Of a stretch of 47,676 nucleotides of DNA, positions 1,391 to 43,403 are shown piece after piece; the stretch's first letter is position 1; every line of letters starts with the position of its first letter. Made by a program: the position numbers and the translations under genes. The notes under the pieces were generated by a model. It was given only the letters and a program-made list of their open reading frames with translations. It searched no databases and was not told the origin of the DNA. Source of the DNA: an uncultured Alphaproteobacteria bacterium (GTDB lineage: Bacteria; Pseudomonadota; Alphaproteobacteria; JAJFIK01); contig CAYUYV010000015.1 in NCBI GenBank assembly GCA_964449455.1, positions 3,344 through 51,019 of the forward strand, in the 5' to 3' direction.

Positions 1391-1405
1391 GGCCGGCGGG
1401 GCCGC

Positions 1406-2261: not shown

Positions 2262-2320
2262 GCGCAACAGGCCGGTTAAGTCGGGTGCGGATTATTCACC
2301 CTCGTAGGATGAGCCTAAGC

Positions 2321-24036: not shown

Positions 24037-26349
24037 TTAGGCAACCTTGACCGGTCTGTGGGTGCGGATCATCCGCGCCAGGGAAACCGGATCGAGCGGC
24101 CTTGAAAAGGCGTAGCCTTGCAAGGCATCGCAACCAAGATCCGACAGGATCGCGGCATGGTCCATGGTCTCGACACCTTCTGCCAGCACACTGATTTTCA
24201 AGGCATGGCCAATGGTGATGATGGATTTCACGATCTGGCATTGATCCGGATCGGAGACGATTGGGGCAACAAGAGTCCGATCGATCTTGATCTGTTTCGG
24301 GCGAACACGCATCACACTGGTGATTGAGGCATGGCCAGTCCCGAAATCATCGATCTCGATGCCAAACCCCCGCCGCTTCATTTCATCTATATTGGCTGCC
24401 GTCGTCGGATCAATCCGGTCCAGGAACACCGTTTCGAGAAGTTCGAAGGTGATTGCATAGGCGTGCGCATTCAGCGCCGGCAGTCGGCACAGCAGATCAG
24501 GGTCACTGAGGCGGCGCGCCGACACATTCAGTGACACCTTCGGAATGATCAGACCCTGATCGACGAGGTGATCCAGGTCCTTAAGAGCGCGTTGCAGAAT
24601 GCCGTCATCAATTTCAGCCGTCAGCCCAAGATCATCCGCGACATCCAGGAACGCGGCCGGAGCGAGAACACCGCGGGTGGGATGGCGCCATCGCGCCAGG
24701 GCCTCGATTCCGATGAGTTCATGGGTGCCCGCGGCGAATTGGGGTTCGTAGACGGTGAAAAACTCACCCTTGCGCAATGCAGCTGCGAGATCCCCGGCAA
24801 TCTGTTGTTTGCCCTCCACCTCCGCGCGGAGGGTCGCGTCAAACGTCACGCAGCGGCTGCCTGATTCCTTGGCTTTGTAGAGTGCAAGGTCAGACCTTTG
24901 CAGAAGTTCATGGGGCGGACGGATCTCTAGCGCAGTTGTCGCGAGGCCGACACTGGCCCCGATCCGGCATTCCTTACCCTCATACTGCATGGGCGCTTTG
25001 AACGCTTCGATGAGCCGAACCAGCCGTTTACACAGTGCCGTCTCGTCTTGCATGTTCTCGAATACGATGACGAACTCGTCTCCCCCGATCCGTGCGGCAA
25101 ATTCCTCCACCTCAACAAAGTCTTTGAGGATGCCGGCGCAGCGCATAAGGACCTGGTCTCCCGCATCATGACCGAGCGTGTCATTGATCTCCTTGAACCG
25201 GTCAAGGTCAAGATGCGCAATCGCCAGGGTAAAAGGGGTAGGCTGACGACTATAGGACTCAAGCATGGTCGTCAGAAAGCGTCTGTTTGGGAGGCCCGTT
25301 AGGGCGTCATGTGTTGCTTCGTAGTGAACTGCCTTGCGAGCGGCTTCCGTTGCCAATCGGGCTGTCACGAGGGCCGTGACGTCGCTGTTTGTCCCCACCA
25401 TGCGTATCGGATTGCCTGCCGCGTCGCGCACGGCTTTGCCGCGCGAGCGCCACCAGCACCAATGACCGTGGGAATGGCGAATACGATAGGTCTCATCATA
25501 GTCCGCATTTTCGTCAAAATGGCGGTGAAGAGCCTCTTTGACACGGATACAGTCATCCGGATCGACCCGTTCTTCCCACCACTTCAAGAATTCCGCGTTG
25601 GTATTGGCATCCTCACCCAAAAGGACGAAATTCTGTCCTGAATAAAAGACCCGGTCCGTTGCCAGATCCCAGTCCCAGATTCCGTCCGATGACGCATTTA
25701 CCGCGCGGTCATAGCGATCTTCACTGAGGTTAAGTGCTTTTTTCGTTTCTTCCAGAATGCGATAGCTGCGACCGATGCCGCTGGCCAGGAACATCCCGAT
25801 CAGGGCAATCCCAACGCTTTTGGCCAGCAGCAGGATCATGACCGTGGTCACGACAAGATTGACGCTTCTGTCCACCAGAGGTTCGAAGGCAACGGATTTT
25901 TCCAAAAAGGCATCGGTCGCTGTTCTAAGACCGTTGCGAAGCTGATTTTCACTGAGAGCCCCTATCTCATATTGATCCAGCAGGGCAATCGTGTCATCGA
26001 CAAGAGTAATATCTTCTTTGCAAAGAATTAAAGCCTCACCGGTCCCGGCGAGTTGCATCGCCAAGGCCTCAATCGGCCCAATGATGTTGAGACAAACCTC
26101 GGGCTGGGCGCGGATGTTCAAGAGCGTTTCGCGCAATGCACCCATCGGAATGAGTGCACCATCTTCCAGATTCTCAATTCTCGTGCCCAATTCATGGGCA
26201 TATTGCACATGGTAAAAATTATGTTTGTGAAGTCTCGCGCCGTTCACGACTTGGTGGAAGCCGAAGATTGCGGCGATTCCGGACAAAATGAACAGACCAT
26301 TAATCCACGTGAGTCGTGACTTCACTCGCTCTTGTGGGATGGGCTGCAT
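24037..26349 (-). CDS. Membrane sensor PAS-GGDEF-EAL protein (c-di-GMP cyclase/phosphodiesterase)
   Basis: Two TM helices bracket a helical periplasmic domain of about 160 aa, followed by PAS. GGDEF is intact (RIGGDEF). EAL motifs are intact (EALARW, DDFGTG, KIDRTLV, EGVET, QGYAF). The start is uncertain: ATG 26349 is used here, while the ORF extends to 26487. Confidence 0.85.
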   Translation of the reverse strand: MQPIPQERVKSRLTWINGLFILSGIAAIFGFHQVVNGARLHKHNFYHVQYAHELGTRIENLEDGALIPMGALRETLLNIRAQPEVCLNIIGPIEALAMQLAGTGEALILCKEDITLVDDTIALLDQYEIGALSENQLRNGLRTATDAFLEKSVAFEPLVDRSVNLVVTTVMILLLAKSVGIALIGMFLASGIGRSYRILEETKKALNLSEDRYDRAVNASSDGIWDWDLATDRVFYSGQNFVLLGEDANTNAEFLKWWEERVDPDDCIRVKEALHRHFDENADYDETYRIRHSHGHWCWWRSRGKAVRDAAGNPIRMVGTNSDVTALVTARLATEAARKAVHYEATHDALTGLPNRRFLTTMLESYSRQPTPFTLAIAHLDLDRFKEINDTLGHDAGDQVLMRCAGILKDFVEVEEFAARIGGDEFVIVFENMQDETALCKRLVRLIEAFKAPMQYEGKECRIGASVGLATTALEIRPPHELLQRSDLALYKAKESGSRCVTFDATLRAEVEGKQQIAGDLAAALRKGEFFTVYEPQFAAGTHELIGIEALARWRHPTRGVLAPAAFLDVADDLGLTAEIDDGILQRALKDLDHLVDQGLIIPKVSLNVSARRLSDPDLLCRLPALNAHAYAITFELLETVFLDRIDPTTAANIDEMKRRGFGIEIDDFGTGHASITSVMRVRPKQIKIDRTLVAPIVSDPDQCQIVKSIITIGHALKISVLAEGVETMDHAAILSDLGCDALQGYAFSRPLDPVSLARMIRTHRPVKVA

Positions 26350-26511
26350 CGGTTGTTGGTCCAGCTCGGGGTGTAAATCCGCGTTGAAGGCCACAACAAT
26401 AACGAGTCGGCCATAATGATTGGTTGCCTCAAGCGCGCGGTGTTGCCGCACCTGCCGAGAGGCAAAGCTTGAAGCGTGAGCGCCCATACGTTTTGCGAAG
26501 GCGGAAGATGG

Positions 26512-26550: not shown

Positions 26551-27351
26551 CTACGGTTTGCGGAACCGCGTTCCCGGCGCCGGGGGGTGTTCGGGCGGTC
26601 CGGCGAAGCATTGGGCCATGGCCATCCAGCGGGTGGCGGTTTCTCCGGTCACCGTGAGCGCGGTGTCGGCGATGTTGCGCACCTGGGTCACCACCTGGCA
26701 GAATTCGGTGGCGCTGCCTTCGACCTTATTGTCCGTCTGCGGCGTGTTCCACTCCCAGATTTCTCCGGACGGCGCGGTCAGGCGCACATAGGGGATGTCT
26801 GCCGGGATCTCCAGACCGCGGACCATGAAGGTCCAGCCAAAGGTGTTCAGGCCCAGATGAGCGATGTTCCGGATACGGTCCGCATCGACCCGCTCAACGC
26901 CCAGCGTGTCATAGACTTCCTGACCATGGGCCCAGGTCTCCATCAGTCGGGCGGTGATACTCGAGCGCACGCTCATATCGGGTCCGGCCCATTTAACACG
27001 GGCCTTGGGGTCCGCCTCGGCAAAGCGCGCCGCCATGGTGGGATAATAATCCGCCCAGGCATCGAACAGGGCCCGCCCCGAGAGGCCGCCCAACCACCCG
27101 GTCTCGAAGCTGCGCAGCGTGCCCCCGCCTTCCAGTTCCTTTGCCACATCGGCATAAAAGGACTGGAAGGCACCGCTGTCCGTTAGGGATGTATCGGCCG
27201 CCCAGTTCCACATATGAAGGTGGCCCACCACGTCATTGATGGTCCAACCCTTGAATTGAGTTGCCTGCTGAAAATCCGTATCGGAAAGCGGTTCAAGCAG
27301 CGCGTGCAGGGCGTCGCTTTCTTCTTTGAAGTCGATAGCCTGCTGCATCAT
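26551..27351 (-). CDS. DinB/MDMPI_N-fold putative metal-binding protein (TIGR03084-like)
   Basis: 266 aa. W.INDVVGHLHMW and RLMETWAHGQEV motifs recalled from the mycothiol-maleylpyruvate-isomerase N-terminal superfamily. The start overlaps the upstream stop (ATGA). Confidence 0.65.
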   Translation of the reverse strand: MMQQAIDFKEESDALHALLEPLSDTDFQQATQFKGWTINDVVGHLHMWNWAADTSLTDSGAFQSFYADVAKELEGGGTLRSFETGWLGGLSGRALFDAWADYYPTMAARFAEADPKARVKWAGPDMSVRSSITARLMETWAHGQEVYDTLGVERVDADRIRNIAHLGLNTFGWTFMVRGLEIPADIPYVRLTAPSGEIWEWNTPQTDNKVEGSATEFCQVVTQVRNIADTALTVTGETATRWMAMAQCFAGPPEHPPAPGTRFRKP

Positions 27352-28502
27352 TGCGTGTCCTCCACCTTGAGATAGCCGTGGAGCCGGTCATAGGCGGACA
27401 GGAAATCCTCCATGAACTCGACCATCACGGTCCGGACGGACTGCTGGCTGTTCATCAGGCCCACGCCCTGGCCGACCCAATAGGTGGCAAGCTCCTTCGC
27501 CCCGTCATGGCCGCCATCGGCGAGCTTGTCGATCTTGGAGAGGGCCGGCTCACTGATCATGGACTGGAGTGGCATGGGTAGGGGCTCGGGGCTGCCCTGG
27601 GCCTCCCAAGCATCCGTCCACGGAGAGCGGAGCTGGCGGGAGAATTTGCCCGTGCGGCTCTTGGAGCGCACCGTATCCGATGAACGCGCCGTGACCATTT
27701 TGTCCTTCACCGCAGGCAGGGTTTCGGCTTCGGCCGTTGTCAGCCACATGGACGCGGTCCAGGCGCCGGCAGCACCCATGGCCATGCAAGCGGCCATCTG
27801 CCGGCCCGTGGCGATGCCACCGGCGGCCAGAATGGGCGTGTCGCCATAGGGCTGAATGCCAATATGCACTTCCGGGATCAGCACCATGGTCGAAACGCTG
27901 CCGCAATGGCCGCCCCCTTCCGTACCCGACACAATCAGCACATCGACGCCGGCCTGGACCTGTTTGATGGCGTGCTCCTTGGCACCGACCAGGGCACCGG
28001 TCTTCACGCCCCGCTCACGGGCCATGTCCAGCATGATTTGGGGGGGCACACCGAGGGCATTCACGATGAATTTGATGGGATAGGAAAAGGCCACATCGAG
28101 CAGGCGCTTGGCCCCGCTCTCCTGGATGTTTTGGCCGATCCCACCGAATTGCTGGCGCACATCGTCAGTGAGGTCACTGGAGTCGATGCCATGGCTCTCC
28201 AGGATCTGGGAGGCGAATTTCTTGTGTTCTTCCGGGATCATGGCGATGATCTGCTCCGCCGACGGAGTAGACCCGGAAATGGCGGATTTGTTGGGGATCA
28301 GCAGGTCCACACCGTAAGGCCGGCCATCGATATTCTCATCGATCCATTTGAGTTCGGTATCAAGGGCTTCAGGGGAAATGCCGCCAGCGCCCAGGACGCC
28401 GAGCCCGCCGGCCTTGGAGACTTCCGTTACCACATTTCGGCAATGGCTGAAGGCGACGAGGGGAAAATCGATCCCGAACATGTCGCAGATGGGTGAGTGC
28501 AT
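27348..28502 (-). CDS. Nitronate monooxygenase family FMN oxidoreductase (NMO/2-nitropropane dioxygenase-like)
   Basis: 384 aa. TIM-barrel flavoenzyme motifs (GGLGVLGAG, SGTEGGGH, PILAAGGIATGRQ). GGAGA SD 6 nt upstream of the ATG. Confidence 0.85.
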   Translation of the reverse strand: MHSPICDMFGIDFPLVAFSHCRNVVTEVSKAGGLGVLGAGGISPEALDTELKWIDENIDGRPYGVDLLIPNKSAISGSTPSAEQIIAMIPEEHKKFASQILESHGIDSSDLTDDVRQQFGGIGQNIQESGAKRLLDVAFSYPIKFIVNALGVPPQIMLDMARERGVKTGALVGAKEHAIKQVQAGVDVLIVSGTEGGGHCGSVSTMVLIPEVHIGIQPYGDTPILAAGGIATGRQMAACMAMGAAGAWTASMWLTTAEAETLPAVKDKMVTARSSDTVRSKSRTGKFSRQLRSPWTDAWEAQGSPEPLPMPLQSMISEPALSKIDKLADGGHDGAKELATYWVGQGVGLMNSQQSVRTVMVEFMEDFLSAYDRLHGYLKVEDTQ

Positions 28503-28684
28503 GGCAATTCTCCCGTTGTTTGGTAGGATCGTTTATCTGTCAGTGTCGGTGCAAATCCTGGTGTCCTTTTGGGTCCGGTAAACGCGGGTCCAGTAAAGCC
28601 ATCGAGGGGCGCTTGATCCGTGTGCTGATGCGCCAGATAGCTTTGCGGCCCTGGCAAGGGCAGCGCGAGCATGGTGGACCCGCA

Positions 28685-30679
28685 TCACGATGCGGCGACC
28701 TCAATATCGAACAGCATGTCATGCGCGGCGACCTGGGCGCCGGTTTCGGCATGGACAAGGGTCACGGTGCCATCGGCTTCGGCCAGGATCTCATGCTGCA
28801 TCTTCATGGCTTCGAGGATCGCAAGGCGCTCACCCGTGGTCACCGACTGGCCGGCCCGGACGAAGATCTCGATAATCCGGCCATGCATGGGGGCCGTGAC
28901 CTGGCCACCGCCCGTGCTATCGTCCGCATCCCGACCGCTGGTGTTGGCGTTGCGGAACAGGAAGCTGGCGGCCCCCTCCTGGAGGTGAAGCTCTGAGCGT
29001 GATGCGGCCAGAAACACGACATTGCGGCGCCGTCCTTCGACGACGAGGCGTGCAAAGGGCGCTTCCAGGTGCTCCAGGGTGACCGCCAAACTCTGTCCGT
29101 GCCCGTCAACTCGATATGTGCCTTGGCCCTGGGGCGTGATGGTCACGTCCACAGCGCTGTCGCCCACTTGCGCCACATAGGGAAAGATGAGCGTGCCGGC
29201 ACTCACCCAATCCATCAGTTCCGGGGACCGGACAAGGCTCTTGCCGGCGGCGGCTTCCCGGCGCAATGCGTAGTCAATGACGCCAGCCATGGCGGCGTGG
29301 GACATGTCCGGAACCGGACCGGCGAGGTCTTGTGCGCCGAACTCTTCGGCAATGAAGGCCGTTGTGGCACCGCCTTGGGCAAAGGTCTCCCGTTCCAGGC
29401 AATCGACCAGAAATGCCCGATTGGTCCGCAGACCGATGAGACCCAAATCCTTCAGGGCGCTGGCGAGGCGCCGCCGGGCCACGTCCCGCGTAGGGCCATG
29501 GGCCATGACCTTGGCAATCATGGGATCGTAAAAGGGAGACACGGACTGGCCGGAAACGATTCCGGTGTCGATGCGCACGCCCTCTCCCTGCGGTGCTTGC
29601 CACAGGGTGATCGTTCCGGTAGCGGGCAGGAAATCCTGAGACGGATCTTCTGCATAGAGGCGGGCTTCGATGGCATGGCCATCAAGGCGGATGTCGTCCT
29701 GGGTCAGGCCCAGCGGTTTGCCCTCGGCAACCTGGATCTGAAGGGCGACGAGGTCGAGCCCAGTCACGAGTTCCGTGACTGGATGTTCCACCTGAAGCCG
29801 CGTATTCATTTCGAGGAAATAGAAGGCGCCATCCTGACCGAGAAGAAATTCGACCGTACCGGCTCCCTCATAGGCGATGGCTCGGGCAGCGGTCACGGCA
29901 GCCTCACCCATCCGGGCGCGCAGCTCCTTGGTGAGGACGGGGCAGGGTGCTTCCTCGATCACCTTTTGATAGCGTCTTTGTACGGAGCAGTCCCGTTCGC
30001 CCATATGGATTGCCGAGCCATGGGCATCGCCGAAGACTTGGATCTCAACATGGCGTGGCCGGATAATGGCCCGTTCCAGGATCAATTCACCGGAGCCGAA
30101 GGCATTCTCGGCCTCGGAGCGGGCGAGTGCCAGGGCATCGGACAGTCCTTCCATCCCATGGACAAGTCGCATGCCCCGCCCACCACCGCCGGCCGCCGCT
30201 TTGACCATCAAGGGAAAGCCGATGGATCGGGCCGCATCAATCAGGGTCGCGTCGCTTTGATCCTCGCCCTCATAGCCCGGCACACAAGGCACGCCCGCGC
30301 CAATCATGCGCCGTTTGGCATCCGCCTTGTTGCCCATGGCCGCGATGGCCTCTGGAGAGGGGCCGATAAAGGTCAGCCCAGCCTCGGCACAGGCCTTGGC
30401 GAAACCGGCATTCTCCGACAAAAAGCCATAGCCCGGATGAACGGCGTCCGCACCGAGCTGGCGCGCTGCGTCGATAATCCGCTCCGGGTCCAGATAGCTT
30501 TCGCCAGCGGGTGCTGGTCCGATCAGGGCGGCGTCATCGGCCAGGGCCACATGGGGCGCATCTGCATCGGCTTGCGAATAGACTGCAAGGGCCCGTCGGC
30601 CCAGAGCCTTCACGGTCCGTATGACCCGAACTGCGATTTCGCCGCGATTGGCGATCAGGATGGCGTTAAGCTCAGCCAT
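28685..30679 (-). CDS. Biotin carboxylase + biotin carboxyl carrier fusion (acyl-CoA carboxylase alpha subunit, MccA/AtuF/PccA-like)
   Basis: 664 aa. ILIANRGEIA, GGGGRGMR and ATP-grasp core motifs. C-terminal biotinyl domain with EAMKM. Confidence 0.9.
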   Translation of the reverse strand: MAELNAILIANRGEIAVRVIRTVKALGRRALAVYSQADADAPHVALADDAALIGPAPAGESYLDPERIIDAARQLGADAVHPGYGFLSENAGFAKACAEAGLTFIGPSPEAIAAMGNKADAKRRMIGAGVPCVPGYEGEDQSDATLIDAARSIGFPLMVKAAAGGGGRGMRLVHGMEGLSDALALARSEAENAFGSGELILERAIIRPRHVEIQVFGDAHGSAIHMGERDCSVQRRYQKVIEEAPCPVLTKELRARMGEAAVTAARAIAYEGAGTVEFLLGQDGAFYFLEMNTRLQVEHPVTELVTGLDLVALQIQVAEGKPLGLTQDDIRLDGHAIEARLYAEDPSQDFLPATGTITLWQAPQGEGVRIDTGIVSGQSVSPFYDPMIAKVMAHGPTRDVARRRLASALKDLGLIGLRTNRAFLVDCLERETFAQGGATTAFIAEEFGAQDLAGPVPDMSHAAMAGVIDYALRREAAAGKSLVRSPELMDWVSAGTLIFPYVAQVGDSAVDVTITPQGQGTYRVDGHGQSLAVTLEHLEAPFARLVVEGRRRNVVFLAASRSELHLQEGAASFLFRNANTSGRDADDSTGGGQVTAPMHGRIIEIFVRAGQSVTTGERLAILEAMKMQHEILAEADGTVTLVHAETGAQVAAHDMLFDIEVAAS

Positions 30680-30691
30680 TGGTCCGAAGCC

Positions 30692-32485
30692 CTAAAGTTG
30701 GCCGGCAAGATGTGCCGGAACGGGTATGGGATAATCGAGCAGAATCTGGGCGTAGCCTTTTCCTTGCGGGTCATTGCGCAGGCTGGCCATGCCGCCGCCG
30801 CCGAGCACATTGTGGATGAGGAGGTTCAGGGCCGGAGGGCCGGGCAGATAGAAGCGTTCAACACGGGTTGGCTCGAAATGAGCGAAGGCGCCGGCCACGA
30901 CTTCCTCCGTCAGGGCCGCCCAGATATAGGGCATATAGTCCGCATGCCGTGCAATAATACCGACATTGGCATGATTGCCTTTGTCTCCGCTGCGAGCCCA
31001 GGCAAGCCGGATGAGCGGCACTGTGGCGGGAGCGCCTGCGAAATCGGGCGGGTCCGGGAGGGCGGCGCGTTCGATTTCCGCAGCATCAAACGGCTTGCCG
31101 ACGCCTTTGGGAAGCGTGGTGGTCTCGCCGTCCATATCGAGATGAATGGCAACGGCCTCCTTCGGCACAAGGAAGGAAAACAGCCGGACCACGGGCGAGG
31201 GGCTGGGACGGCCGCCTTGGAATCCGGACAGGCCCGGCGGCGTGGCAAGGCCGAGGCCCGTGATCTCCCGCAGCAGAATGCCAACGCCCTTTTGGTCGTC
31301 ATGCTTGGCAGCGATCTTCACAGCCACTTCCCGGGCCCCGTCAATGCGCCGGCCAGAGCCATACTGACTTTCCGCACCGATCACTTCGACACTGATCTCC
31401 TCAAAGTCACCGATATTCATGGTGCGCAATGTGGCTCGGGCCCGCGCGATGGCCGCATCGGCAAAGGCTCGGGCCTTTTGGTCCGCGTCAATACCGTAAA
31501 AGGTCAACACGGTGCCGCCGCGGAATCCGTCAGCAAGGGTCGCTGAAACCTTATAACTGTCCGTAGCCGGCGTGCCCTTTGCGCCTTCAACAAGGACGCG
31601 GTCGGGCGCCGCCTGGGTAAGGCGGACAGCGGAGAAATCGCAGACCACGTCAGGGACCAAATAGGCCTGGGGATCACCAATTTCATAGAGCATCTGTTCG
31701 CCGACAGTGCCCACGGAGACAAGCCCGCCGGTTTCCTCCGGCTTGGTCAGGGCGAACCGCCCAGAGCCTTCAATCTCGGCAATGGGATAGCCAATGTCCT
31801 GGATCGTGTGCGCGACCTGTTGCCAGTCCGTGAAATTGCCGCCCGTGGCCTGGGGGCCGCATTCGAGCAGATGGCCCGCCAGGGTGCCGGCGGCGAGCCG
31901 GTCCCAATCATCCGCCTGCCAACCAAATTCATGGATGCAGGCGCCGAGGGTTACGGCGCTGTCAACACAGCGCCCTGTGATGACAATGTCCGCTCCCTGT
32001 TCAAGGGCTTGCGCGATGGGAAAGGCACCCAGATAGGCATTGATGCTGGCGACTCGTCCGGCATCGGGGAAGATCTCTCCAGAGAACATTTCAGGGATCT
32101 GGGCCTCGGCGAATCCTTGGGCCTCGCCCAGGAGGTCATCCCCGGTAATCACGGCGACCTTGAGGTCGAGGCCTGCGGCATGGACCAGGGCTCTGGCGGC
32201 CTCGCCACAGGCGACCGGATTGACCCCGCCGGCATTGGAGATCACCCGCACGCCCTGTCGCGCTATCTCAGTGAGATTATCCTTGAGCACCACACGGACA
32301 AAATCCGTGGCATAGCCCTGGGCGGGGTCCTTCGCCCGGGCGCGGGCCATGATCGACATGGTGATTTCGGCAAGATAGTCGAAGACGAGATAGTCAAGAT
32401 CGCCCTTGGCCAGGAGCTGGGGCGTCGCCATGGCGGACTCGCCCCAATAGCCGCTTGCACCGCCGATTCGAACGACTTTCTTCAT
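30692..32485 (-). CDS. AtuA family protein (DUF1446, acyclic terpene utilisation-like) with C-terminal DUF4387-like region
   Basis: MKKVVRIGGASGYWGES...DYLVFDYLAEITMSI is a typical DUF1446 N-terminus. Start trimmed to ATG 32485. Ends 12 bp before the carboxylase gene. Confidence 0.8.
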   Translation of the reverse strand: MKKVVRIGGASGYWGESAMATPQLLAKGDLDYLVFDYLAEITMSIMARARAKDPAQGYATDFVRVVLKDNLTEIARQGVRVISNAGGVNPVACGEAARALVHAAGLDLKVAVITGDDLLGEAQGFAEAQIPEMFSGEIFPDAGRVASINAYLGAFPIAQALEQGADIVITGRCVDSAVTLGACIHEFGWQADDWDRLAAGTLAGHLLECGPQATGGNFTDWQQVAHTIQDIGYPIAEIEGSGRFALTKPEETGGLVSVGTVGEQMLYEIGDPQAYLVPDVVCDFSAVRLTQAAPDRVLVEGAKGTPATDSYKVSATLADGFRGGTVLTFYGIDADQKARAFADAAIARARATLRTMNIGDFEEISVEVIGAESQYGSGRRIDGAREVAVKIAAKHDDQKGVGILLREITGLGLATPPGLSGFQGGRPSPSPVVRLFSFLVPKEAVAIHLDMDGETTTLPKGVGKPFDAAEIERAALPDPPDFAGAPATVPLIRLAWARSGDKGNHANVGIIARHADYMPYIWAALTEEVVAGAFAHFEPTRVERFYLPGPPALNLLIHNVLGGGGMASLRNDPQGKGYAQILLDYPIPVPAHLAGQL

Positions 32486-32501
32486 CGGACCCTCCCCATT
32501 G

Positions 32502-32523
32502 AAACCGAACGGGCATTCTGTTT
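32502..32523. promoter_or_regulatory. Imperfect palindrome AAACCGAA-N6-TTCTGTTT, candidate TetR operator
   Basis: 7 of 8 positions are symmetric. Lies 17 bp upstream of the AtuA-like start, in the AtuA/TetR divergent region. Confidence 0.3.
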
Positions 32524-32645
32524 TATAAAGGAAGGTCCTTGCGTCGGCAACCACCGGAAGGACAGGCGCTGGAACCGGGCCGTCGCAATTGGGGATGCTT
32601 CTAAAAGAGCCTGCGAGTTCGCGACCATGGGGGCGCACGTCATTG

Positions 32646-33296
32646 ATGGATGATGCGGGACAAAGTGAGGTCGAGGATCGCCGGGGGCGCAAGGCTGAGA
32701 TGGCCCGGCGCACCATCTGTGACGCCGTCATCACTTGCCTTGATCGCTATGGCTATGCGGAGACCACCATCAGCCGCGTCACCGAAACGGCCGGCGTTTC
32801 TCGGGGCGCCCTGACCCATCATTTTCCGACCAAGGAAGACCTGATGGTCGCCGCAACCGATCGCCTGCTCGGTCGCACCGCCCGCGCCCGTTTGCCCAGC
32901 GCAAGAGAGGGTCATCCGTCCCGTGAAGATGAGGGGGGTGATCTTGAGGCTGATTTTCTTTGGCTCTGGGATCGGCTGGCCAATACGAAGGAGGGGCGCG
33001 TCCTTCTGGAAATCTTGGTCGCGGCCCGGACCGACCGGGCCTTGAGGGCCAAGCTTGGGTCAAGGCTTGGCTATTGGAACGGCGCCATGAATGATCACTT
33101 CGCCGGGATCTATCACTTGGCCGAGGATGCGCCGCCGGAGATTGACTTTGCCGATCTGTGGACCCTGGCCCGTGTGTTCCTGCGTGGCCTGAGCACCCAG
33201 GGTCTGTTCGGCGCTGAGCCGGAGAGCCAACGCCGGCTGGTGCGCCTTTTCGCCCGCCTTATGGCCCCCCATTTGCGCCGGTCGCATAAATCATAG
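32646..33296 (+). CDS. TetR/AcrR family transcriptional regulator
   Basis: ...YAETTISRVTETAGVSRGALTHHFPTKEDL helix-turn-helix signature. Divergent from the AtuA-like gene. Start is either ATG 32646 or 32700. Confidence 0.85.
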   Translation: MDDAGQSEVEDRRGRKAEMARRTICDAVITCLDRYGYAETTISRVTETAGVSRGALTHHFPTKEDLMVAATDRLLGRTARARLPSAREGHPSREDEGGDLEADFLWLWDRLANTKEGRVLLEILVAARTDRALRAKLGSRLGYWNGAMNDHFAGIYHLAEDAPPEIDFADLWTLARVFLRGLSTQGLFGAEPESQRRLVRLFARLMAPHLRRSHKS

Positions 33297-33701: not shown

Positions 33702-33814
33702 ACCGCGATTGGCCGCGTCTCGGGGCCCGGGGCACTTTAAAATCGCTTTTGTAGTCACTCTCGCGTAAGTCGGGCCGGTTTGGATTGCGCAACCGGTATT
33801 TGGGGAGAAACGGC

Positions 33815-36172
33815 GTGGGCTCAATCGGTTTTGGCCTGGAATATCTCGGCCTCGTCGCGGTGGCGCGGCCGCGCATCACGCTTGTGCTGATCCTGGTGGT
33901 TCTCACGGTTGCGGTGATCGGCGCTGCCAAGACCCGTTTTGCGGACGATATGGCCACCATCTTCCAGTCCGCCGATGCGGCCTATCAAACCTATGACCAG
34001 TTCAAGGGCCAGTTCGTGGACGGCTCTGACTCCGCCATCCTGGTCGTGGATGGCGATTTTACCCGCGCGGACCACTGGGCGGCGCTGCAGGCCCTGGCCC
34101 AATCGGTCGAATCCCTGCCATCGGTTGCCGATGTGGTCTCGATCCTTTCGCTGCGCCGCCTGGAGTCCTCCGCGGGCGATCCGGCACCGGATAATTTTGA
34201 AGATGATCTGTTCGAGGATCCCGAGTTTGAAGCCGCGTCTGTGAAGCCGGCTGCCTTTGAAGAGGGCGCCGATGCCGGCCAGAACGGCATCGAAGGCGCC
34301 ATGGAACTGGGGGCTGCAGCGCTTGCGGTTCATCCGCTGAACGAAGGGGGACGGCTGCTCACTCCGGATTTTAAAAGTGCGACCATGATCCTTGCCCTGC
34401 CGGAGGACGGGGACCGGCTGGAGAATGCCCAGGCCCTTGCAGCGGATCTGGGCCCGCTTCTGGTTCAACTGCCGGACGGCATGACGGCGATGCTGAGTGG
34501 CTTGCCCATTGTCCGTGCCGAGATCGTGCGTCACCTCGTGGAAGAGCATCCGTTTATTCTGGGGGCGGGCCTCGGCATAGGGTTTCTCCTGGGCGTGGTG
34601 CTGCTGGGCATTCTTGTCGATGCCGTCATCGTTGCGGTGATGCCTATTCTCAGTATCGTGATGGTTTATGGCGGCTTTGGCTGGCTCGGCATTCCCATGA
34701 CGGTCATGCTGAACGACCTGCCCCTTTTGGTCCTGGCCCTGGCCTTCGCGGCGAATATGCATCTTGTCTATGCGGCCCGAAGGGACCTTTTCGCCGCTGA
34801 TTACGACTTCAAGGCTATTGCCAAGACCATCCGGTTCATCGGGCCGGCTTGCAGCCTCGCCAGCCTGACAACGATCGTTGCCTTTTTGTCCCTCGCGTTT
34901 TCCGGATCCAGAGCCATTGTCGAATTCGGCCTGATCGGCGCGGCGTCCGTGTTTGGTGTGCTCATCTCGGCCATGGTGTTTTTCCCGGTGACCGTGTGGG
35001 TCGCGCTCCATCTGGGCTGGCGGCCCCGGCCGGCATTGCAGGGTAAGGGACGTGTCGCCCAAGCCATTGAGGCCGCCGCTGTGGATGCCACCCGCCTTTT
35101 CTATGCCTATCGCTGGCCGATCGTGGTCTTTGTGGTGGTCGCGACGATTGGGGCCGGTATCGCTTATAGCCGCGTTACTCCGAGCTATACCTATCTTGAG
35201 GAAGTTCCGTCTGGATCTGAGACTTACAAGCTTATCGAGCGCCTGGAAGGGCAGCTGGGCGGGGCGCACACGCTTCACCTGCCGCTGCCCATTCCCATCA
35301 CTCCGGACGAATTTGACCTGGCGCCGCTTCTGAAGCTGCGCGACGTCCACAAAACCCTTGAAACCGAGCTTGGCCGGCCCGTCTATTCCGCCTGGACCAT
35401 CATATCCTGGCTGACAGATACCGGCCGCACTGTTTCGGCGCCCCGAATGGAAGCGGTTTTCGAGCAGGCGCCCAGCGGATTGCGGGGCCTGTTGTTGTCG
35501 AAGGACGGCAACACCCTGGCGCTCATGGTGCGGGTCTCGGAAACGGACGAAACGGATCTTGACAGCCTCGCCGCCCAAATCGAGACCGTGGCCGGTGAGG
35601 TGCTGGGCGCGGATCTGACAGGCCAGGCCACGGGCATCGTGGTGCTGGCCTCACGGGTCAGCGATGAGATTCTCTACAGGCTTGGCATATCCCTCGTGAT
35701 TGCGGCCATGGCAACGTCGCTGCTTGTCGGGTTTGGCTTCCGGTCGTTTGAGGTGGCACTGTTGACCCTGGTGCCGAATATTCTGCCTGTGCTAGCGGTG
35801 GGTGCGCTTCTTTACCTGCTCGATTGGCCGTTGCAAATCGCAAGCGCGCTCGCCATGACGATTGCCTTGGGCATCGCGGTTGATGACACTGTGCACATGA
35901 TGAATGGCTTTTGGGCCCAACGCTGTGCGGGGCGATCGCCGCGGGCCTGTATTGCCCGGACGATGCGGGAAGTTGGGCCAGTGCTGGTCTTGACCAGCTT
36001 CGTCCTGATGCTGGGCCTGTCGCCGGCCCTTTTGAGCTGGTCCCCCGGGATCGCCACTTTCGCCCTGTTCGCAATCGCCACGATCGGTATTGCTCTGGTC
36101 ACCTGTCTTGTGGCCCTGCCCGCCATCCTGGCCCTGCGGTTCCATCGGGGAACATCCGCGTGGCTCGACTGA
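33815..36172 (+). CDS. MMPL/RND-superfamily (HpnN-like) lipid exporter
   Basis: About 785 aa with two blocks of about 6 TM helices, each preceded by a large soluble loop. GGAGA SD 6 nt upstream of GTG 33815. The ORF track begins at TTG 33785. Confidence 0.8.
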   Translation: MGSIGFGLEYLGLVAVARPRITLVLILVVLTVAVIGAAKTRFADDMATIFQSADAAYQTYDQFKGQFVDGSDSAILVVDGDFTRADHWAALQALAQSVESLPSVADVVSILSLRRLESSAGDPAPDNFEDDLFEDPEFEAASVKPAAFEEGADAGQNGIEGAMELGAAALAVHPLNEGGRLLTPDFKSATMILALPEDGDRLENAQALAADLGPLLVQLPDGMTAMLSGLPIVRAEIVRHLVEEHPFILGAGLGIGFLLGVVLLGILVDAVIVAVMPILSIVMVYGGFGWLGIPMTVMLNDLPLLVLALAFAANMHLVYAARRDLFAADYDFKAIAKTIRFIGPACSLASLTTIVAFLSLAFSGSRAIVEFGLIGAASVFGVLISAMVFFPVTVWVALHLGWRPRPALQGKGRVAQAIEAAAVDATRLFYAYRWPIVVFVVVATIGAGIAYSRVTPSYTYLEEVPSGSETYKLIERLEGQLGGAHTLHLPLPIPITPDEFDLAPLLKLRDVHKTLETELGRPVYSAWTIISWLTDTGRTVSAPRMEAVFEQAPSGLRGLLLSKDGNTLALMVRVSETDETDLDSLAAQIETVAGEVLGADLTGQATGIVVLASRVSDEILYRLGISLVIAAMATSLLVGFGFRSFEVALLTLVPNILPVLAVGALLYLLDWPLQIASALAMTIALGIAVDDTVHMMNGFWAQRCAGRSPRACIARTMREVGPVLVLTSFVLMLGLSPALLSWSPGIATFALFAIATIGIALVTCLVALPAILALRFHRGTSAWLD

Positions 36173-36321
36173 CGGGCCACGCGCCTGGAATTCGGCGAGG
36201 CTCACCCGCTTAAGGAGTCTGAGCGTGGCCCCGCCTCATCTATGCTGTAGTGAATCTGCGCGACGCCGAGGGGCGGCGGGCTGCTCGTAAAGACCTTGTG
36301 AGACTGAGAGAACGGAAGTTT

Positions 36322-37518
36322 ATGGCCCAGAACATGACACTTGCATCGCCGGTTGCCCTGCGCACTGCCGATCGTGCCGACACCGCCGCCGACGCGGTCA
36401 ACGCAGCTCAGGCGATGCCTTCGGCCCAGCCCGCGGCCGATGTCCGCATCACCGGTCTCGGCACCGCCGTGCCGCCCCATGTGCTTGAGCAGGACGTCGT
36501 CGAAGTGATCGCCGGCCGGATCCTCGGCCCCCGCTTTCCGGATTTCCAGCGCCTCGCCCGCACCTTCACCTCCTCCGGTGTGAAGACCCGGTATTCCGTG
36601 TGCCCCCTGGAGTGGTTCCAGTCATCCCAGGACTGGCCCGAGCGGACGGCCCGTTATCTGGAAGGCGCAACAGCCCTGTTCGTGGAGTCCGCCAACAAGG
36701 CCCTGGCGGAAGCCGGACTTCAGGCCGCGGATGTGGACGCCGTGGTGACCGTGTCCTCAACGGGCATTGCCACCCCAACCCTGGAGGCGCGAGCCTTCGG
36801 CATCATGGGCTTTCGCCACGATATTCTCAGGGTTCCAGTGTTTGGGCTTGGCTGTGCAGGCGGGGTGAGCGGCCTTGCCATCGCCCAGCGTCTGGCGGCT
36901 GCGACGCCGGATTCCACGGTGCTCCTTGTCTGTGTGGAAACCTGCACATTGGCCTTCCGGGACGACCAGCTTCGCAAGGCTGACATCATCGCAACCGTGC
37001 TGTTCGGTGATGGAGCGGCGGCGGCTGTTCTGTCGAACCGCTCATCCCATCCGCAAGCGATGAATGGTGAGGGCTCCACCGCTCGGGGGCCACGCCTTGG
37101 TGCCGGTGTCCAGCATATCTGGACTGACAGTCTCAACATCATGGGCTGGGACGTGGACCCGACTGGCTTTGGCGTGATTTTCGATCGCTCCATTCCGCCC
37201 TTTGTGACGTCCGAATTCGCTGGGGCCGTGGACTTCTGCCTGGAGCGTATGGAGCTGACCCGGGACGACATCACCCGCTATGTCTGCCATCCGGGCGGCA
37301 TCAAGGTGCTTGAATCCATTGAGGAGACGATGGGTCTTGAAAGCGGATCCCTGGATCACGAGCGCGATGTCATTCGCGATTTCGGTAATATGTCCGCGCC
37401 CACCGTGTTGTTCGTGTTGGACCGCTTCCGGCAGACCGGTCCGACGGGGCGGGTGCTGCTGACGGGTCTTGGTCCAGGGTTCACCGCATCCATGATCCCC
37501 CTGTCATTTGACGTCTGA
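36322..37518 (+). CDS. Type III polyketide synthase (chalcone synthase superfamily)
   Basis: Catalytic triad contexts are visible: GLGCAGG (Cys), YVCHPGG (His) and FGNMSAPT (Asn). FGDGAAA loop. Start trimmed to ATG 36322. Confidence 0.9.
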   Translation: MAQNMTLASPVALRTADRADTAADAVNAAQAMPSAQPAADVRITGLGTAVPPHVLEQDVVEVIAGRILGPRFPDFQRLARTFTSSGVKTRYSVCPLEWFQSSQDWPERTARYLEGATALFVESANKALAEAGLQAADVDAVVTVSSTGIATPTLEARAFGIMGFRHDILRVPVFGLGCAGGVSGLAIAQRLAAATPDSTVLLVCVETCTLAFRDDQLRKADIIATVLFGDGAAAAVLSNRSSHPQAMNGEGSTARGPRLGAGVQHIWTDSLNIMGWDVDPTGFGVIFDRSIPPFVTSEFAGAVDFCLERMELTRDDITRYVCHPGGIKVLESIEETMGLESGSLDHERDVIRDFGNMSAPTVLFVLDRFRQTGPTGRVLLTGLGPGFTASMIPLSFDV

Positions 37519-37559
37519 CCATTTGGGGCGACATCTGATTATTTCTGGAGGGCAGCATC

Positions 37560-38081
37560 ATGCTGGAAAGCGTGTTTCAGGGGCCGGCTGGATGGGGGTT
37601 TGTCCTTTTGTCCGTCGTGACGGCCCAGCGGCTCGTTGAGCTGCGCATTGCTAAACACAACACCCAGCGTCTGCTTGACCGGGGTGCGCGGGAGATCGGC
37701 GCGGATCATTATCCGCTGATGGTGGGGTTCCATGCCACCTGGTTGATCCTGATGTGGATTTTCGGCTGGAACCAGGGCCTGGTGGCGTTCTGGGTGGGTG
37801 TCTACATCCTGCTCCAGGCTTTCCGCATCTGGATCCTGGCGAGTCTCGGGCCCCGCTGGACGACGCGGATCATTATCATTGATGAGCCCCTTGTGGCGCG
37901 TGGCCCCTATAAGTTCATCAGGCACCCCAATTACTGGCTGGTGGTTGCTGAGATTGCCACGGTACCGCTCGCCCTGGGTCTGACGTGGCTCGCAGTCGCC
38001 GTGTCCGTTCTCCATGCCGGCGTGCTCTTCATCCGCATCCGTGCCGAGAATGCCGGTCTGAAGCAGATTGCCCATTTGTGA
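37560..38081 (+). CDS. Isoprenylcysteine carboxyl methyltransferase (ICMT) family membrane methyltransferase
   Basis: 173 aa, multi-TM. RGPYKFIRHPNYW motif. GGAGGG SD 7 nt upstream. Confidence 0.85.
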   Translation: MLESVFQGPAGWGFVLLSVVTAQRLVELRIAKHNTQRLLDRGAREIGADHYPLMVGFHATWLILMWIFGWNQGLVAFWVGVYILLQAFRIWILASLGPRWTTRIIIIDEPLVARGPYKFIRHPNYWLVVAEIATVPLALGLTWLAVAVSVLHAGVLFIRIRAENAGLKQIAHL

Positions 38082-40501: not shown

Positions 40502-40547
40502 CTGCACGTATATCATCCGTGGGCCACGCTCCCCCAACGGAGTGCAG
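40502..40547 (+). ncRNA. Nested hairpin in the serC 5' leader (candidate alphaproteobacterial serC leader motif)
   Basis: The outer stem pairs CTGCAC (40502-07) with GTGCAG (40542-47). The inner stem pairs TCCGTGGG (40516-23) with CCCaACGGA (40533-41). GGAAGG SD follows, then ATG 40570. Confidence 0.4.
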
Positions 40548-40569
40548 CTATTCTGGAAGGAATAGACTT

Positions 40570-41754
40570 ATGGAAAGTCAGACGACCCCGGCAAAGCCGG
40601 TAATGCGTCCTGCGCGGGCGCAGTTCTCCTCCGGTCCTTGCGCCAAGCGCCCCGGTTGGACCCCTCAAGACCTCGCCGACGCGGCACTCGGCCGCTCCCA
40701 CCGCTCAAAAATTGGTAAGGCGAAGCTCGCCGAGGCGATCACGCTCACCCGCGAAATACTCCAGGTTCCCGATGACTACCGGATTGGCATTGTGCCAGCG
40801 TCGGACACGGGGGCTGTGGAAATGGCCATGTGGTCCCTGCTCGGGGCACGCGGCGTTGATGTGGTTGCGTGGGAATCATTCGGAGCTGGATGGGTTACCG
40901 ATGCGGTCAAACAGCTGAAGCTTGACGACTGCCGCGTCATTGAAGCCGACTACGGACAAATCCCTGATCTTGCCGGCATCGACACGGATCGCGATGTGGT
41001 CTTCACCTGGAACGGCACGACGTCCGGTGTGCGCGTTCCGAATGCGCACTGGATCAAGGCGGATCGGGCGGGGTTGACCATTTGCGATGCCACCTCGGCG
41101 GCTTTCGCCCAGGATCTCGACTGGCCAAAGCTCGATGTGGTCACCTATTCCTGGCAGAAAGTGCTCGGCGGAGAGGCGGCCCACGGGGTGCTGATCCTCT
41201 CACCGCGGGCCGTGGAGCGCTTGGAGACCTACAAGCCCGACTGGCCGCTGCCGAAAATCTTCCGTCTGACCAAGGGCGGCAAGCTGATCGAAGGTATTTT
41301 CAAGGGTGAAACCATCAACACGCCTTCGCTTCTGTGTGTTGAGGATTATCTCGATGCCCTGCGCTGGTCGCAGAGCGTTGGCGGCCTTGCAGGATTGCGG
41401 GCGCGCGCCGATGGCAATCTCGCCGTCATGGAACAGTTTGTGGGGACCCGGGATTGGATTGATTTCCTGGCGGAGGATCCGGCGACCCGCTCCAATACCT
41501 CTGTCTGTCTCAAGATTGTCGATCCTGTATTCCTTGACCTTGATGCGGATGGCCGCAAGGCGCTCGTGAAGCGCCTCAGCGAGCTCCTGGAGGCCGAGGA
41601 GGTCGCGTTCGACATCGAAGGCTATCGCGATGCTCCGGCGGGCCTGCGCATCTGGTGCGGGGCAACGGTGGAGGCGTCTGATCTTGAGGCGCTTTTACCT
41701 TGGCTCGACTGGGCCTATGCCACGGCGCGTGAAGAACAGCGCGCCGCCGCCTGA
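40570..41754 (+). CDS. serC: Phosphoserine aminotransferase (long alphaproteobacterial/actinobacterial type)
   Basis: [17 protein letters not shown]-terminus and [14 protein letters not shown]-Lys context. Start trimmed to ATG 40570. Confidence 0.9.
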
Positions 41755-41825
41755 TCATCCGTTCTGATCCGAATTCTCTCATGCAGCGGTCGCCTGAAAA
41801 GGCGGCCTTCAGGGACCCTATCGCC

Positions 41826-43403
41826 ATGCCTAAAGTGCTTATTTCCGACAAGCTCAGCGAAGCCGCCGTGGAGATTTTTCGCAGCCGTGGACTTGAGGTG
41901 GACTTCAAACCTGGTCTGCCCAAGGAAGATTTGCTTCAGATCATCGGCCAGTATGATGGCCTTGCGGTGCGCTCCAATACCAAGGCAACGCCGGACGTGA
42001 TCGGCGAAGCCAAGAACCTGAAAGTGATCGGCCGGGCCGGCATCGGCGTTGACAATATCGACCTGCCCGCCGCCACGGCTGCCGGCATCGTGGTCATGAA
42101 CACACCTTTCGGCAATTCTGTCACGACGGCGGAACATGCCATTGCCATGATGCTCTCCCTGGCGCGCCAGATTCCGCAGGCGAATGAATCCACCCATGCC
42201 GGCAAATGGGAAAAGTCCCGCTTCATGGGCACTGAGCTGACCGGCAAGACTCTCGGCGTGCTCGGCTGCGGCAATATCGGCAGCATTGTCGCAAATCGCG
42301 CCCAGGGCCTCAAAATGCGGGTCATCGCCTATGATCCGTTCTTGTCGGAGGACCGGGCCCGGGAAATGGGTGTTGAAAAGGTCAATCTCGATACGCTTCT
42401 TCAGCGTGCGGATATCGTGACCATTCACGTTCCTTTGACCGATGAAACCCGCAATATCGTCAGTGCCGAGGCCATTGCGAAAATGCGCCCTGGCGCCCGC
42501 CTGGTAAACTGTGCGCGGGGTGGTCTTGTCGATGAGGATGCCCTCAAGGAAGCCCTTGACAGCGGCCATCTTGCAGGCGCGGCCCTCGACGTCTTCGCCG
42601 AAGAGCCAGCCAAAGAACACCCCCTGTTCGGCCACGAGAAACTGATCGCGACACCACATCTGGGCGCGTCCACCATGGAGGCTCAGGAAAAGGTGGCCCT
42701 TCAGGTGGCGGAGCAGATGTCGGATTATCTGCTGACCGGAGCCGTGACCAATGCGATCAATATGCCGTCGATTTCGGCCGAGGAAGCGCCGATCCTGAAG
42801 CCGTTTGTGACGTTGACCCAGCAGCTTGGCCTTTTTGTTGGTCAGCTCTGCGAGTCACCGATCCGGGGTGTGCAGATTGAGTATGAAGGCGATGTGGCGG
42901 CCATGAATGTCAAGGCGCTGACGGCCGCCGGTCTTGTCGGCGTGCTCCGCCCGCTCCTGTCCGACATCAATATGGTCTCGGCGCCGGTTATCGCGAAGGA
43001 GCGGGGGCTGAAACTGTCGGAGGTTCTGCGCGAGCAGCGCGGGGTCTATGAGACCTATGTCCGCATTCAGGTGGAAACGGAAACGGGCAACAACAGTGTG
43101 GCCGGAACGATTTTCTCCACGGGTCAGCACCGGGTGATTCAGGTTCAGGGCGTGGCTATCGAGGCGGGCCTCGGGCGCCACATGCTGCTCACGACGAATG
43201 AGGACAAGCCCGGTTTCATCGGCTCTCTGGGCGTTGCGTTGGGTGATGCCGGCGTCAATATTGGTGGCTTTAATCTTGGTCGCCAGGCGCCTGGAGGCGA
43301 TGCGCTGGCCCTGGTCGAGGTGGATCAGCCCGTCGGCACGGAGGTTCTGGATAGCCTTCGCAAGTTGCCGCTGGTACGCAGTGCACGTGCATTGACGTTT
43401 TGA
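41826..43403 (+). CDS. serA: D-3-phosphoglycerate dehydrogenase (long form with ASB and ACT domains)
   Basis: MPKVLISDKL..., GCGNIGS NAD motif and RGGLVDE. C-terminal ACT region. Directly follows serC. Confidence 0.95.
   Translation: MPKVLISDKLSEAAVEIFRSRGLEVDFKPGLPKEDLLQIIGQYDGLAVRSNTKATPDVIGEAKNLKVIGRAGIGVDNIDLPAATAAGIVVMNTPFGNSVTTAEHAIAMMLSLARQIPQANESTHAGKWEKSRFMGTELTGKTLGVLGCGNIGSIVANRAQGLKMRVIAYDPFLSEDRAREMGVEKVNLDTLLQRADIVTIHVPLTDETRNIVSAEAIAKMRPGARLVNCARGGLVDEDALKEALDSGHLAGAALDVFAEEPAKEHPLFGHEKLIATPHLGASTMEAQEKVALQVAEQMSDYLLTGAVTNAINMPSISAEEAPILKPFVTLTQQLGLFVGQLCESPIRGVQIEYEGDVAAMNVKALTAAGLVGVLRPLLSDINMVSAPVIAKERGLKLSEVLREQRGVYETYVRIQVETETGNNSVAGTIFSTGQHRVIQVQGVAIEAGLGRHMLLTTNEDKPGFIGSLGVALGDAGVNIGGFNLGRQAPGGDALALVEVDQPVGTEVLDSLRKLPLVRSARALTF

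Follow-up and report, generated by a model that had tools for sequence, protein, structure and literature searches.

How is an acyl-CoA carboxylase alpha subunit to be understood when its gene directly follows an AtuA-family gene and no carboxyltransferase (CT) gene stands beside it? The question is raised by a stretch of 47,676 nucleotides from an uncultured Alphaproteobacteria bacterium (assembly GCA_964449455.1, contig CAYUYV010000015.1, positions 3,344 to 51,019 of the forward strand), which is called the window here. It carries an operon of four genes, encoding an AtuA-family protein, an alpha subunit that unites biotin carboxylase (BC), BT domain and biotin carboxyl carrier protein (BCCP), a flavoenzyme of the nitronate monooxygenase (NMO) family and a protein of the TIGR03084 family, with a TetR-family gene divergent from them (Table 1). 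An earlier note, made from the letters of the window, had raised the possibility that AtuA and the alpha subunit form a minimal module of a new kind. By comparing the window with related loci, we have shown that the operon should rather be regarded as a lineage-specific derivative of the common atu/geranyl-CoA carboxylase (GCC)-type operon, produced by stepwise deletions, as judged from gene content and sequence similarity.

Genes missing from the window

No match to Carboxyl_trans, enoyl-CoA hydratase (ECH) or acyl-CoA dehydrogenase was found among the 47 open reading frames (ORFs) of the window scanned with Pfam. In addition, a six-frame tblastn search of the whole window with CT, ECH and acyl-CoA dehydrogenase seeds, at E values up to 10, returned only noise, the best hit being no better than E = 0.1. 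Both searches bear out the earlier statement that none of the three genes occurs in the window. That is, of the components by which an atu-type cluster is recognised, the AtuC-like beta subunit, the AtuE-like hydratase and the AtuD-like dehydrogenase are all lacking here, while the beta gene is present in the related locus L082 and the hydratase gene in L082, L167 and L169. As to the dehydrogenase, genes of this family flank many relatives of the operon, often together with an acyl-CoA ligase gene.

The common form of the operon in related loci

A genome scan with the AtuA alignment gave 80 loci and a metagenome scan gave 80 more. The window proteins, together with seeds from the relatives, were mapped onto all of them, and architectures were counted in the 100 loci in which AtuA is complete and followed by at least 5 kb of sequence. 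The AtuA genes of related clusters are 54–83% identical to that of the window. A BC-BCCP gene lies within 6 kb downstream of AtuA in 67 of the 100 loci, and in 66 of these 67 a CT gene stands between the two; the sole exception is L081, the sister metagenome-assembled genome (MAG) of the window. The distance from AtuA to BC-BCCP is 1.65 or 2.45 kb in almost every locus, and the genes in this interval are, according to Pfam, Carboxyl_trans (540 aa) and ECH (270 aa), the hydratase being usually present. The CT of L082 is GCC-beta-like, with 575 bits to 5ikl_B versus 447 bits to the beta subunit of methylcrotonyl-CoA carboxylase (MCC).

Because the CT is placed between AtuA and alpha in nearly all the loci that have both and is of the GCC type, we infer that the ancestral unit is an atu-like operon with the arrangement TetR / AtuA-CT-(ECH)-alpha-(NMO)-TIGR03084. 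The complete operon occurs in marine and soil Alpha- and Gammaproteobacteria (e.g., L082, L169, L002 and L138). In such loci AtuA, alpha, NMO and TIGR03084 are orthologous to those of the window (54–85% identity) and stand in the same order, with the same TetR gene and operator, whereas the window and L081 lack the 540-aa CT and the 270-aa hydratase, and L167 lacks the CT only. The proposed minimal AtuA plus BC/BCCP module thus does not hold as a general architecture, since the direct junction is found only in the window and L081. What is conserved of the neighbourhood across genomes is the synteny of AtuA and BC-BCCP, with the CT interposed in all but one of the 67 loci.

On the other hand, the parts of the operon are also met separately. 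AtuA has no adjacent BC-BCCP in ~30 loci. A TIGR03084 gene lies downstream of AtuA in 52 of the 100 loci and a FabK-like NMO gene in 14; AtuA and TIGR03084 stand alone, with no carboxylase, in 12 loci, and L049 has AtuA-NMO-TIGR03084 (examples of loci with AtuA plus TIGR03084 are L013, L049, L059, L066, L095–L104 and L117). The TIGR03084 family therefore appears to be tied to AtuA. A different combination is seen in L083 (GCA_964561475.1, 7040–12532), where a TetR gene and the same operator are followed by CT-BC/BCCP-TIGR03084, with no AtuA, hydratase or NMO; the CT of this locus is 78% identical to that of L082. As both the AtuA-TIGR03084-only loci and the AtuA-less L083 exist, dispersal of operon parts is common among the relatives, which makes a split pathway plausible, and a locus of the L083 type could supply the beta subunit in trans.

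Stepwise loss in the window lineage

Only four relatives with an AtuA at least 73% identical to that of the window were obtained by protein search, and a metagenome scan with the window AtuA for further CT-less members of the lineage gave nothing above 69% identity. Two of the four, L082 (76%) and L169 (73%), have the complete operon. In L167 (GCA_964474635.1, 4579–11235; 75%) the arrangement is AtuA-ECH-alpha-NMO-TIGR03084, that is, the CT is missing, while in L081 (GCA_050331455.1; 83%) both CT and ECH are missing and AtuA is followed by alpha, NMO and TIGR03084. A neighbour-joining tree built from the concatenated sequences of the four proteins (1887 columns) unites the window with L081 and L167 at 99% bootstrap, and L082 joins them with 100%. 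Because L167, which misses only the CT, belongs to this group, the CT was lost before the hydratase. The simplest history is a single CT loss, followed by hydratase loss in the ancestor of the window and L081.

The junction itself is informative. The spacer between AtuA and BC is exactly 12 bp in both the window and L081, whereas L082 shows AtuA-(ATGA)-CT-ECH-19 bp-BC. The deletion is clean: the AtuA stop codon is kept, and the 12-bp spacer, ribosome-binding site included, is similar to the last part of the spacer between ECH and alpha in L082. Synteny of L081 and the window extends from serA through sufD, and a single colinear blastn alignment of 77% identity spans the junction.

Selection on the surviving genes

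The alpha protein contains the Pfam domains Biotin_carb_N, CPSase_L_D2, Biotin_carb_C and Biotin_lipoyl, and the motifs GGGGRGMR, ERDCSVQRR(Y)QK (ERDCSVQRRYQK), EMNTRLQVEH and EAMKM, the last within the biotinylation motif LEAMKMQHEI. Over its full length it matches the alpha subunits of propionyl-CoA carboxylase (PCC) and MCC in solved holoenzymes (6ybp_G, residues 5–656). That is, the BC motifs, the BT domain and the biotinyl-lysine motif of PCC/MCC/GCC-type alpha subunits are all found.

Conserved columns were defined from CT-linked orthologues and examined in the three CT-less loci, i.e., the window, L081 and L167. In AtuA, BC-BCCP and TIGR03084 of the three, every invariant column is intact (0 of 122–134 broken for alpha), none of the 173 conserved columns of AtuA is changed, and NMO has 1–2 changes in 149 columns, compared with a control median of 3. 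Among the ~190 columns of alpha that are at least 95% conserved, a single change was seen, H237Y. This substitution (window 29969–29971, codon 237) gives RRYQK in place of the RRHQK shared by at least 95% of orthologues, L081 and L167 among them.

We have further calculated dN/dS between the window and L081, whose divergence (dS ~1) is wholly post-deletion. The ratios are 0.109 for AtuA, 0.149 for BC-BCCP, 0.083 for NMO and 0.063 for TIGR03084, and ten flanking genes give 0.03–0.18. All four surviving genes are thus under purifying selection. Within alpha, the values are 0.10 for BC, 0.35 for BT and 0.12 for BCCP. The BT/BC ratio of amino-acid divergence is 2.8, while beta-containing control pairs at similar distance show 1.7–3.7; the BT domain, which contacts the beta subunit, is thus as constrained as in beta-containing relatives. 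Since dN/dS is low, the motifs are intact and the protein aligns end to end with PCC and MCC alpha, the alpha subunit is, by these measures, a normal one under selection, and nothing in AtuA points to a new function. Both simple decay and an obvious functional change were rejected as candidates, as dN/dS per gene and domain, the BT/BC ratio and the conserved columns were all normal.

AtuA as a probable lyase

The role long assumed for AtuA is the release of acetate from a tertiary-alcohol acid. The protein of the window has a PF07287 domain (3e-144) and a C-terminal PF23544 (AtuA_ferredoxin) domain (8e-26); a sequence search of the PDB with the C-terminal domain found nothing. Its AF2 model (pLDDT 81.8, pTM 0.83) was compared with the PDB by Foldseek, and the sole significant match was 9evf_A, 'Citramalate lyase - ADP - pyruvate complex' (E 3.9e-22; TM 0.67 on the target, 497 aligned columns, 17% sequence identity). 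Likewise, a profile search with the AtuA subfamily matches 9erq_A, named by its depositors 'AtuA family protein | citramalate lyase, subunit A (cmlA)'. The AtuA domain, the ferredoxin-like domain and a CmlA-like fold are therefore all seen in the one protein. In this respect the earlier view that the AtuA family has no established biochemical function is out of date.

CmlA is one subunit of the citramalate lyase CmlAB, and a preprint uses the Raoultella planticola CmlAB as a CoA-independent lyase giving pyruvate and acetate (bioRxiv 10.64898/2026.01.16.699985). The Berg laboratory paper that this preprint credits as the gene source reports an unexplained DUF1446 gene in the enterobacterial methylaspartate cluster (PMC4682846). 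CmlA resembles the window AtuA in family, by its depositors' naming, and in fold, and acetate release from a tertiary-alcohol acid is the very reaction assumed for AtuA. The two differ in that CmlA has 456 aa, against 597 aa and a fused C-terminal ferredoxin-like domain in the window AtuA, that CmlA acts on free citramalate whereas the atu-type AtuA would act on a CoA ester, and that the genomic context of CmlA is a glutamate/methylaspartate fermentation cluster (PMC4682846).

Because CmlA was the only fold matched, the predicted structure is best read as that of an enzyme for the C–C lyase step after carboxylation and hydration, rather than of a carboxyltransferase. The suggestion that AtuA might itself transfer the carboxyl group is weakened by this match, by the dedicated CT of the ancestral operon, and by the loci in which AtuA has no carboxylase adjacent to it, and none of the present results speaks specifically for it. 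In the literature searched, we have found no paper that links AtuA/DUF1446 to a biotin enzyme.

The flavoenzyme and the TIGR03084 protein

The NMO-family label given before is right at the level of Pfam membership (PF03060), but among solved structures the protein finds its best relatives in FabK enoyl-ACP reductases (2e-31), true nitronate monooxygenases following only at 1e-10 to 1e-16, so that it stands closer to the enoyl reductases than to the characterised enzymes of the NMO name. It is not FabK itself, since it scores 133 bits with the FabK equivalog model, whose cut-off is 453. A similar place downstream, after TIGR03084, is taken in other loci by an OYE/FadH-type reductase gene. A role in the reduction of a C=C bond is a reasonable inference from these similarities.

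The last gene product scores 312.4 bits with TIGR03084 (trusted cut-off 247.95) over positions 2–253 of the 253 in the profile, and also matches MDMPI_N (Pfam, 1.8e-25). Our search for a solved relative of TIGR03084 found none, and in the literature searched no paper describing the family was found.

The regulator and its putative operator

The ORF of the TetR gene opens at 32589, and its likely start is the ATG at 32646. In the region shared with AtuA, the palindrome at 32502–32523 consists of two 10-bp half-sites, AAACCGAACG and CATTCTGTTT, with a 2-bp GG between them; an imperfect palindrome had been noticed here before, and its position stands, while 10-bp half-sites with a 2-bp spacer describe it better than the N6 spacing given then. 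It is the only such site in the window, and 0 are expected by chance. The gene and the site together give the AtuR-like combination of a divergent TetR and an inverted-repeat operator.

The same combination is found in the relatives. Divergent TetR orthologues (38–60% identity) stand beside AtuA in L017, L019, L036, L051, L053, L058 and L082, and TetR-family genes were also called beside AtuA in L167 and L169. Of the nine other TetR-bearing loci inspected, all but L017 carry an operator with the consensus AAAC(A/C)GAACG-N0-2-CGTTC(T/G)GTTT upstream of the operon (L082, L053 with a perfect palindrome, L019, L036, L058, L051, L083 and L085). This comparison suggests that the palindrome is a putative TetR operator conserved in this operon family.

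In L081, the TetR gene has been lost (9483–10000, with a 42-aa ORF only), and upstream of AtuA we see no evident copy of the operator. Because the gene and the operator are lost, the trimmed operon may be expressed constitutively there.

Layout of the locus and neighbouring genes

The gene set and order described earlier, with the 12-bp and 182-bp gaps, the ATGA overlap, the EAMKM site and the divergent TetR gene, are all present (Table 1). The gaps run from the AtuA stop to the BC start and from the BC stop to the NMO start, respectively, and the overlap is shared by the NMO and TIGR03084 genes. As listed, the AtuA ORF spans 30692–32734 on the minus strand; the real start is the ATG at 32485 rather than 32734, because GGGGAGGG, a ribosome-binding site, precedes this ATG and the resulting product of 597 aa fits the length of the homologues, which all have 594–625 aa.

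Table 1 Features of the AtuA operon and its regulator in the window (minus: operon strand; a point marks a feature given for no strand).
Feature	Position	Strand	Remark
TetR-family regulator, AtuR-like, divergent from AtuA	32646..33296	+	TetR_N 1.6e-12; start codon uncertain
Operator-like palindrome	32502..32523	.	Ends 16 bp upstream of the AtuA start codon
AtuA-family protein (AtuA + C-terminal ferredoxin-like domain), 597 aa, probable C–C lyase	30692..32485	-	First gene of the operon; PF07287, PF23544
AtuA/BC junction, 12 bp, deletion scar (CT ~1.6 kb and ECH ~0.8 kb removed)	30680..30691	-	By comparison with L081 and L082
Acyl-CoA carboxylase alpha subunit (BC + BT + BCCP), 664 aa, AtuF-like	28685..30679	-	Four Pfam domains
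BC-BCCP/NMO spacer, 182 bp	28503..28684	-	~130 bp longer than in sister loci
NMO-family FMN flavoenzyme, FabK-like (candidate enoyl-thioester reductase), 384 aa	27348..28502	-	PF03060 4e-40
TIGR03084-family metal-binding protein (MDMPI_N/DinB fold), 266 aa	26551..27351	-	Last gene of the operon; NCBIfam and Pfam
Stem-loop, 10-bp stem, 7-nt loop	26512..26538	.	Between the operon end and the downstream GGDEF-EAL gene

The spacer before NMO measures ~42–55 bp in L081, L082 and L167, so the window has an extra ~130 bp here. When 28503–28684 was compared by blastn with the 160-odd loci fetched, the window alone had a copy; the extra stretch could be an internal promoter or an inserted element. The hairpin that had been taken to close the unit is indeed there, as a stem-loop of 10 pairs after the last gene (ΔG −22.7 kcal/mol; z = −2.87 against shuffles), while the role of terminator is unproven. 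We looked for a U-tract on the minus strand, the operon strand, at this hairpin and found none, for which reason it was rejected as an intrinsic terminator. Directly downstream of the operon follows a PAS-GGDEF-EAL gene (24037–26487, minus strand), which has the same place in L081 but not in L082 or L167.

After the TetR gene, an MMPL/RND-type transporter gene (sterol-sensing-like), a type III polyketide synthase (PKS) gene and an ICMT-family methyltransferase gene occupy 33785–38081 on the plus strand. The MMPL transporter is common to the window and its nearest relatives, as is the TetR gene except in L081, and the PKS and ICMT genes are also present in L081 and L082, where the block keeps its position (L081 5109–9482, L082 4798–8892). 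L167 has only the MMPL gene at that position (823–3357), then an uncharacterised 229-aa gene at the contig end. The block looks like a unit for synthesis and export of a phenolic lipid of the alkylresorcinol type, and the TetR regulator could control it besides the AtuA operon.

Farther away, a serC leader RNA (RF00517, 48.9 bits against a gathering score of 35) lies at 40517–40570 on the plus strand, directly upstream of a 394-aa gene with no Pfam match (40570–41754), which is followed by a serA-type phosphoglycerate dehydrogenase gene (41781–43403). A beta-class carbonic anhydrase gene (7221–7829, minus strand) stands ~19 kb from the biotin carboxylase; no linkage of a carbonic anhydrase to the AtuA operon was seen in the relatives, and the gene is probably unrelated to the operon. 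The flanks comprise the suf operon, tyrS/anmK and serA with the serC leader. Judged from this gene content, they look alphaproteobacterial, and the closest relative is annotated as an Alphaproteobacteria MAG.

Discussion

The origin of the operon by deletion leaves the question of how its remaining genes work. We consider it probable, though well short of certain, that what we see is an atu/GCC-type operon in trimmed form, for which the beta subunit and the hydratase are supplied in trans; a beta subunit acting in trans was also the first suggestion of the earlier note. The complete operon would strip off the beta-methyl block in the degradation of methyl-branched or isoprenoid acyl-CoAs: the alpha/beta carboxylase would carboxylate the methyl branch of a 3-methyl-2-enoyl-CoA, the hydratase would add water, AtuA would cleave off acetate, and the FabK-like flavoenzyme would reduce a C=C bond, with an accessory role for TIGR03084. 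The lineage lost the beta gene first, reaching the state of L167; loss of the hydratase gene followed and gave the state of the window and L081. The four remaining genes would still work, alpha assembling with a beta subunit whose gene lies at another place in the genome, and hydration being likewise provided in trans. The divergent TetR would act as repressor of the operon by way of the 22-bp palindrome, like AtuR in Pseudomonas.

The closest known system is the Pseudomonas cluster atuR-atuABCDEFGH, which serves acyclic terpene utilisation, with the geranyl-CoA carboxylase AtuC/AtuF. In both, an AtuA-family gene comes first in the operon and a divergent TetR-family repressor gene shares with it an intergenic region with an inverted-repeat operator. 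The window alpha, with its BC-BT-BCCP order, is AtuF-like, and the CT deleted from the lineage was GCC-beta-like. For Pseudomonas, binding of AtuR at the atuA region is cited in PMC4847356. By contrast, the window has no AtuC (beta), AtuE (hydratase), AtuD (dehydrogenase), AtuB/AtuG (short-chain dehydrogenase/reductase) or AtuH (ligase), and contains a FabK-like NMO flavoenzyme and a TIGR03084 protein, both undescribed for atu.

An alpha subunit that works with distant partners has a precedent. The actinobacterial AccA3 alpha serves the beta subunits AccD4, AccD5 and AccD6, which are encoded elsewhere. Carboxylases of this type resemble the present case in having an alpha gene with no adjacent beta gene; they differ in that the operon family of the window normally does have one, as the locus counts above show.

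Several observations weigh against a supply in trans. The window belongs to a single contig of about 51 kb, and we found neither a beta subunit nor a hydratase encoded in trans. When the CT of L082 was searched against a set of 5.8 billion proteins, the closest NCBI-sourced hits (in assemblies GCA_964561475.1, GCA_029261835.1, GCA_044233465.1 and GCA_964612085.1) all lay outside the sister assemblies. If a complete redundant set existed elsewhere, selection on AtuA and alpha at this locus would be hard to explain. Loss of the CT and then of the ECH also resembles the progressive decay of a pathway. In addition, the lyase role of AtuA rests on a relative of 17% identity, and the literature searches showed no experimental study of any member of this operon type.

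Decay as such would mean that carboxylation is dead and alpha an un-eroded relic, with AtuA, NMO and TIGR03084 serving a carboxylase-independent process. The CT-then-ECH order fits relaxed selection on a broken pathway, and so would the loss of the TetR gene and operator in L081, the H237Y change in the RRHQK motif of the window BC, and the AtuA-TIGR03084 and AtuA-NMO-TIGR03084 modules that stand in many genomes with no adjacent carboxylase. However, a neutral relic would not persist with the low dN/dS of BC-BCCP, and of its BC and BCCP domains, at dS ~1; no frameshift or stop is seen in the three genomes and no invariant residue is broken; and alpha evolves, relative to its neighbours, at the rate found in beta-containing loci. 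We therefore regard decay as unlikely.

Still less probable, in our opinion, is a non-canonical biotin enzyme, in which BC-BCCP works directly with AtuA, the latter binding the substrate and taking up or giving off the carboxyl group of carboxybiotin, and which would be a carboxylase or decarboxylase with no crotonase-fold CT. The two genes, 12 bp apart, are indeed kept by purifying selection in two genomes across dS ~1, but the dedicated GCC-type CT in 66 of 67 loci means that AtuA is not the ancestral transferase, and the many loci in which AtuA has no BC-BCCP beside it tell in the same direction. The CT-less state is kept in L167 as well; yet no lineage-specific change is seen at conserved positions of AtuA, BC, BT or BCCP, and the BT domain, which holds the beta subunit, is constrained as in beta-containing relatives. 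From the chemical side, a lyase that stabilises an acetate-type carbanion would have the chemistry needed for a carboxyl-transfer site, and other biotin enzymes, such as pyruvate carboxylase and urea carboxylase, use unrelated CT folds, but the AtuA fold matches a lyase and no known CT. That BC-BCCP now hands carboxybiotin to AtuA, so that the pair forms a carboxylase or decarboxylase of a new biotin-dependent class, its transferase site having the AtuA fold, is accordingly very doubtful. In a weaker version, AtuA, the FabK-like reductase and TIGR03084 may form a carboxylase-independent module, with TIGR03084 as the constant partner. As for an assembly or binning artefact, in which CT and ECH exist in reality and were collapsed out of what is a metagenome-type contig, its probability is negligible and it was rejected, since the independent and syntenic assembly L081 (77–83% DNA identity) has the same 12-bp junction and aligns colinearly through it, and in L167, a third assembly, the CT is missing from the same position.

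On the whole, the carboxylase that lacks a carboxyltransferase is a stepwise deletion derivative of a common operon and no minimal new enzyme. Within this lineage, the orphan alpha and AtuA have been retained across dS ~1 after the loss of the beta gene in cis and then of the hydratase gene. The natural deletion series, from the complete operon to one with no CT and on to one with neither CT nor ECH, reveals which parts of the pathway are separable. For the operon family, a conserved candidate TetR operator has been defined. The comparison also gives leads for uncharacterised families: AtuA is tied to a solved lyase fold, and TIGR03084, more often than the FabK-like reductase, is its companion across the loci counted.

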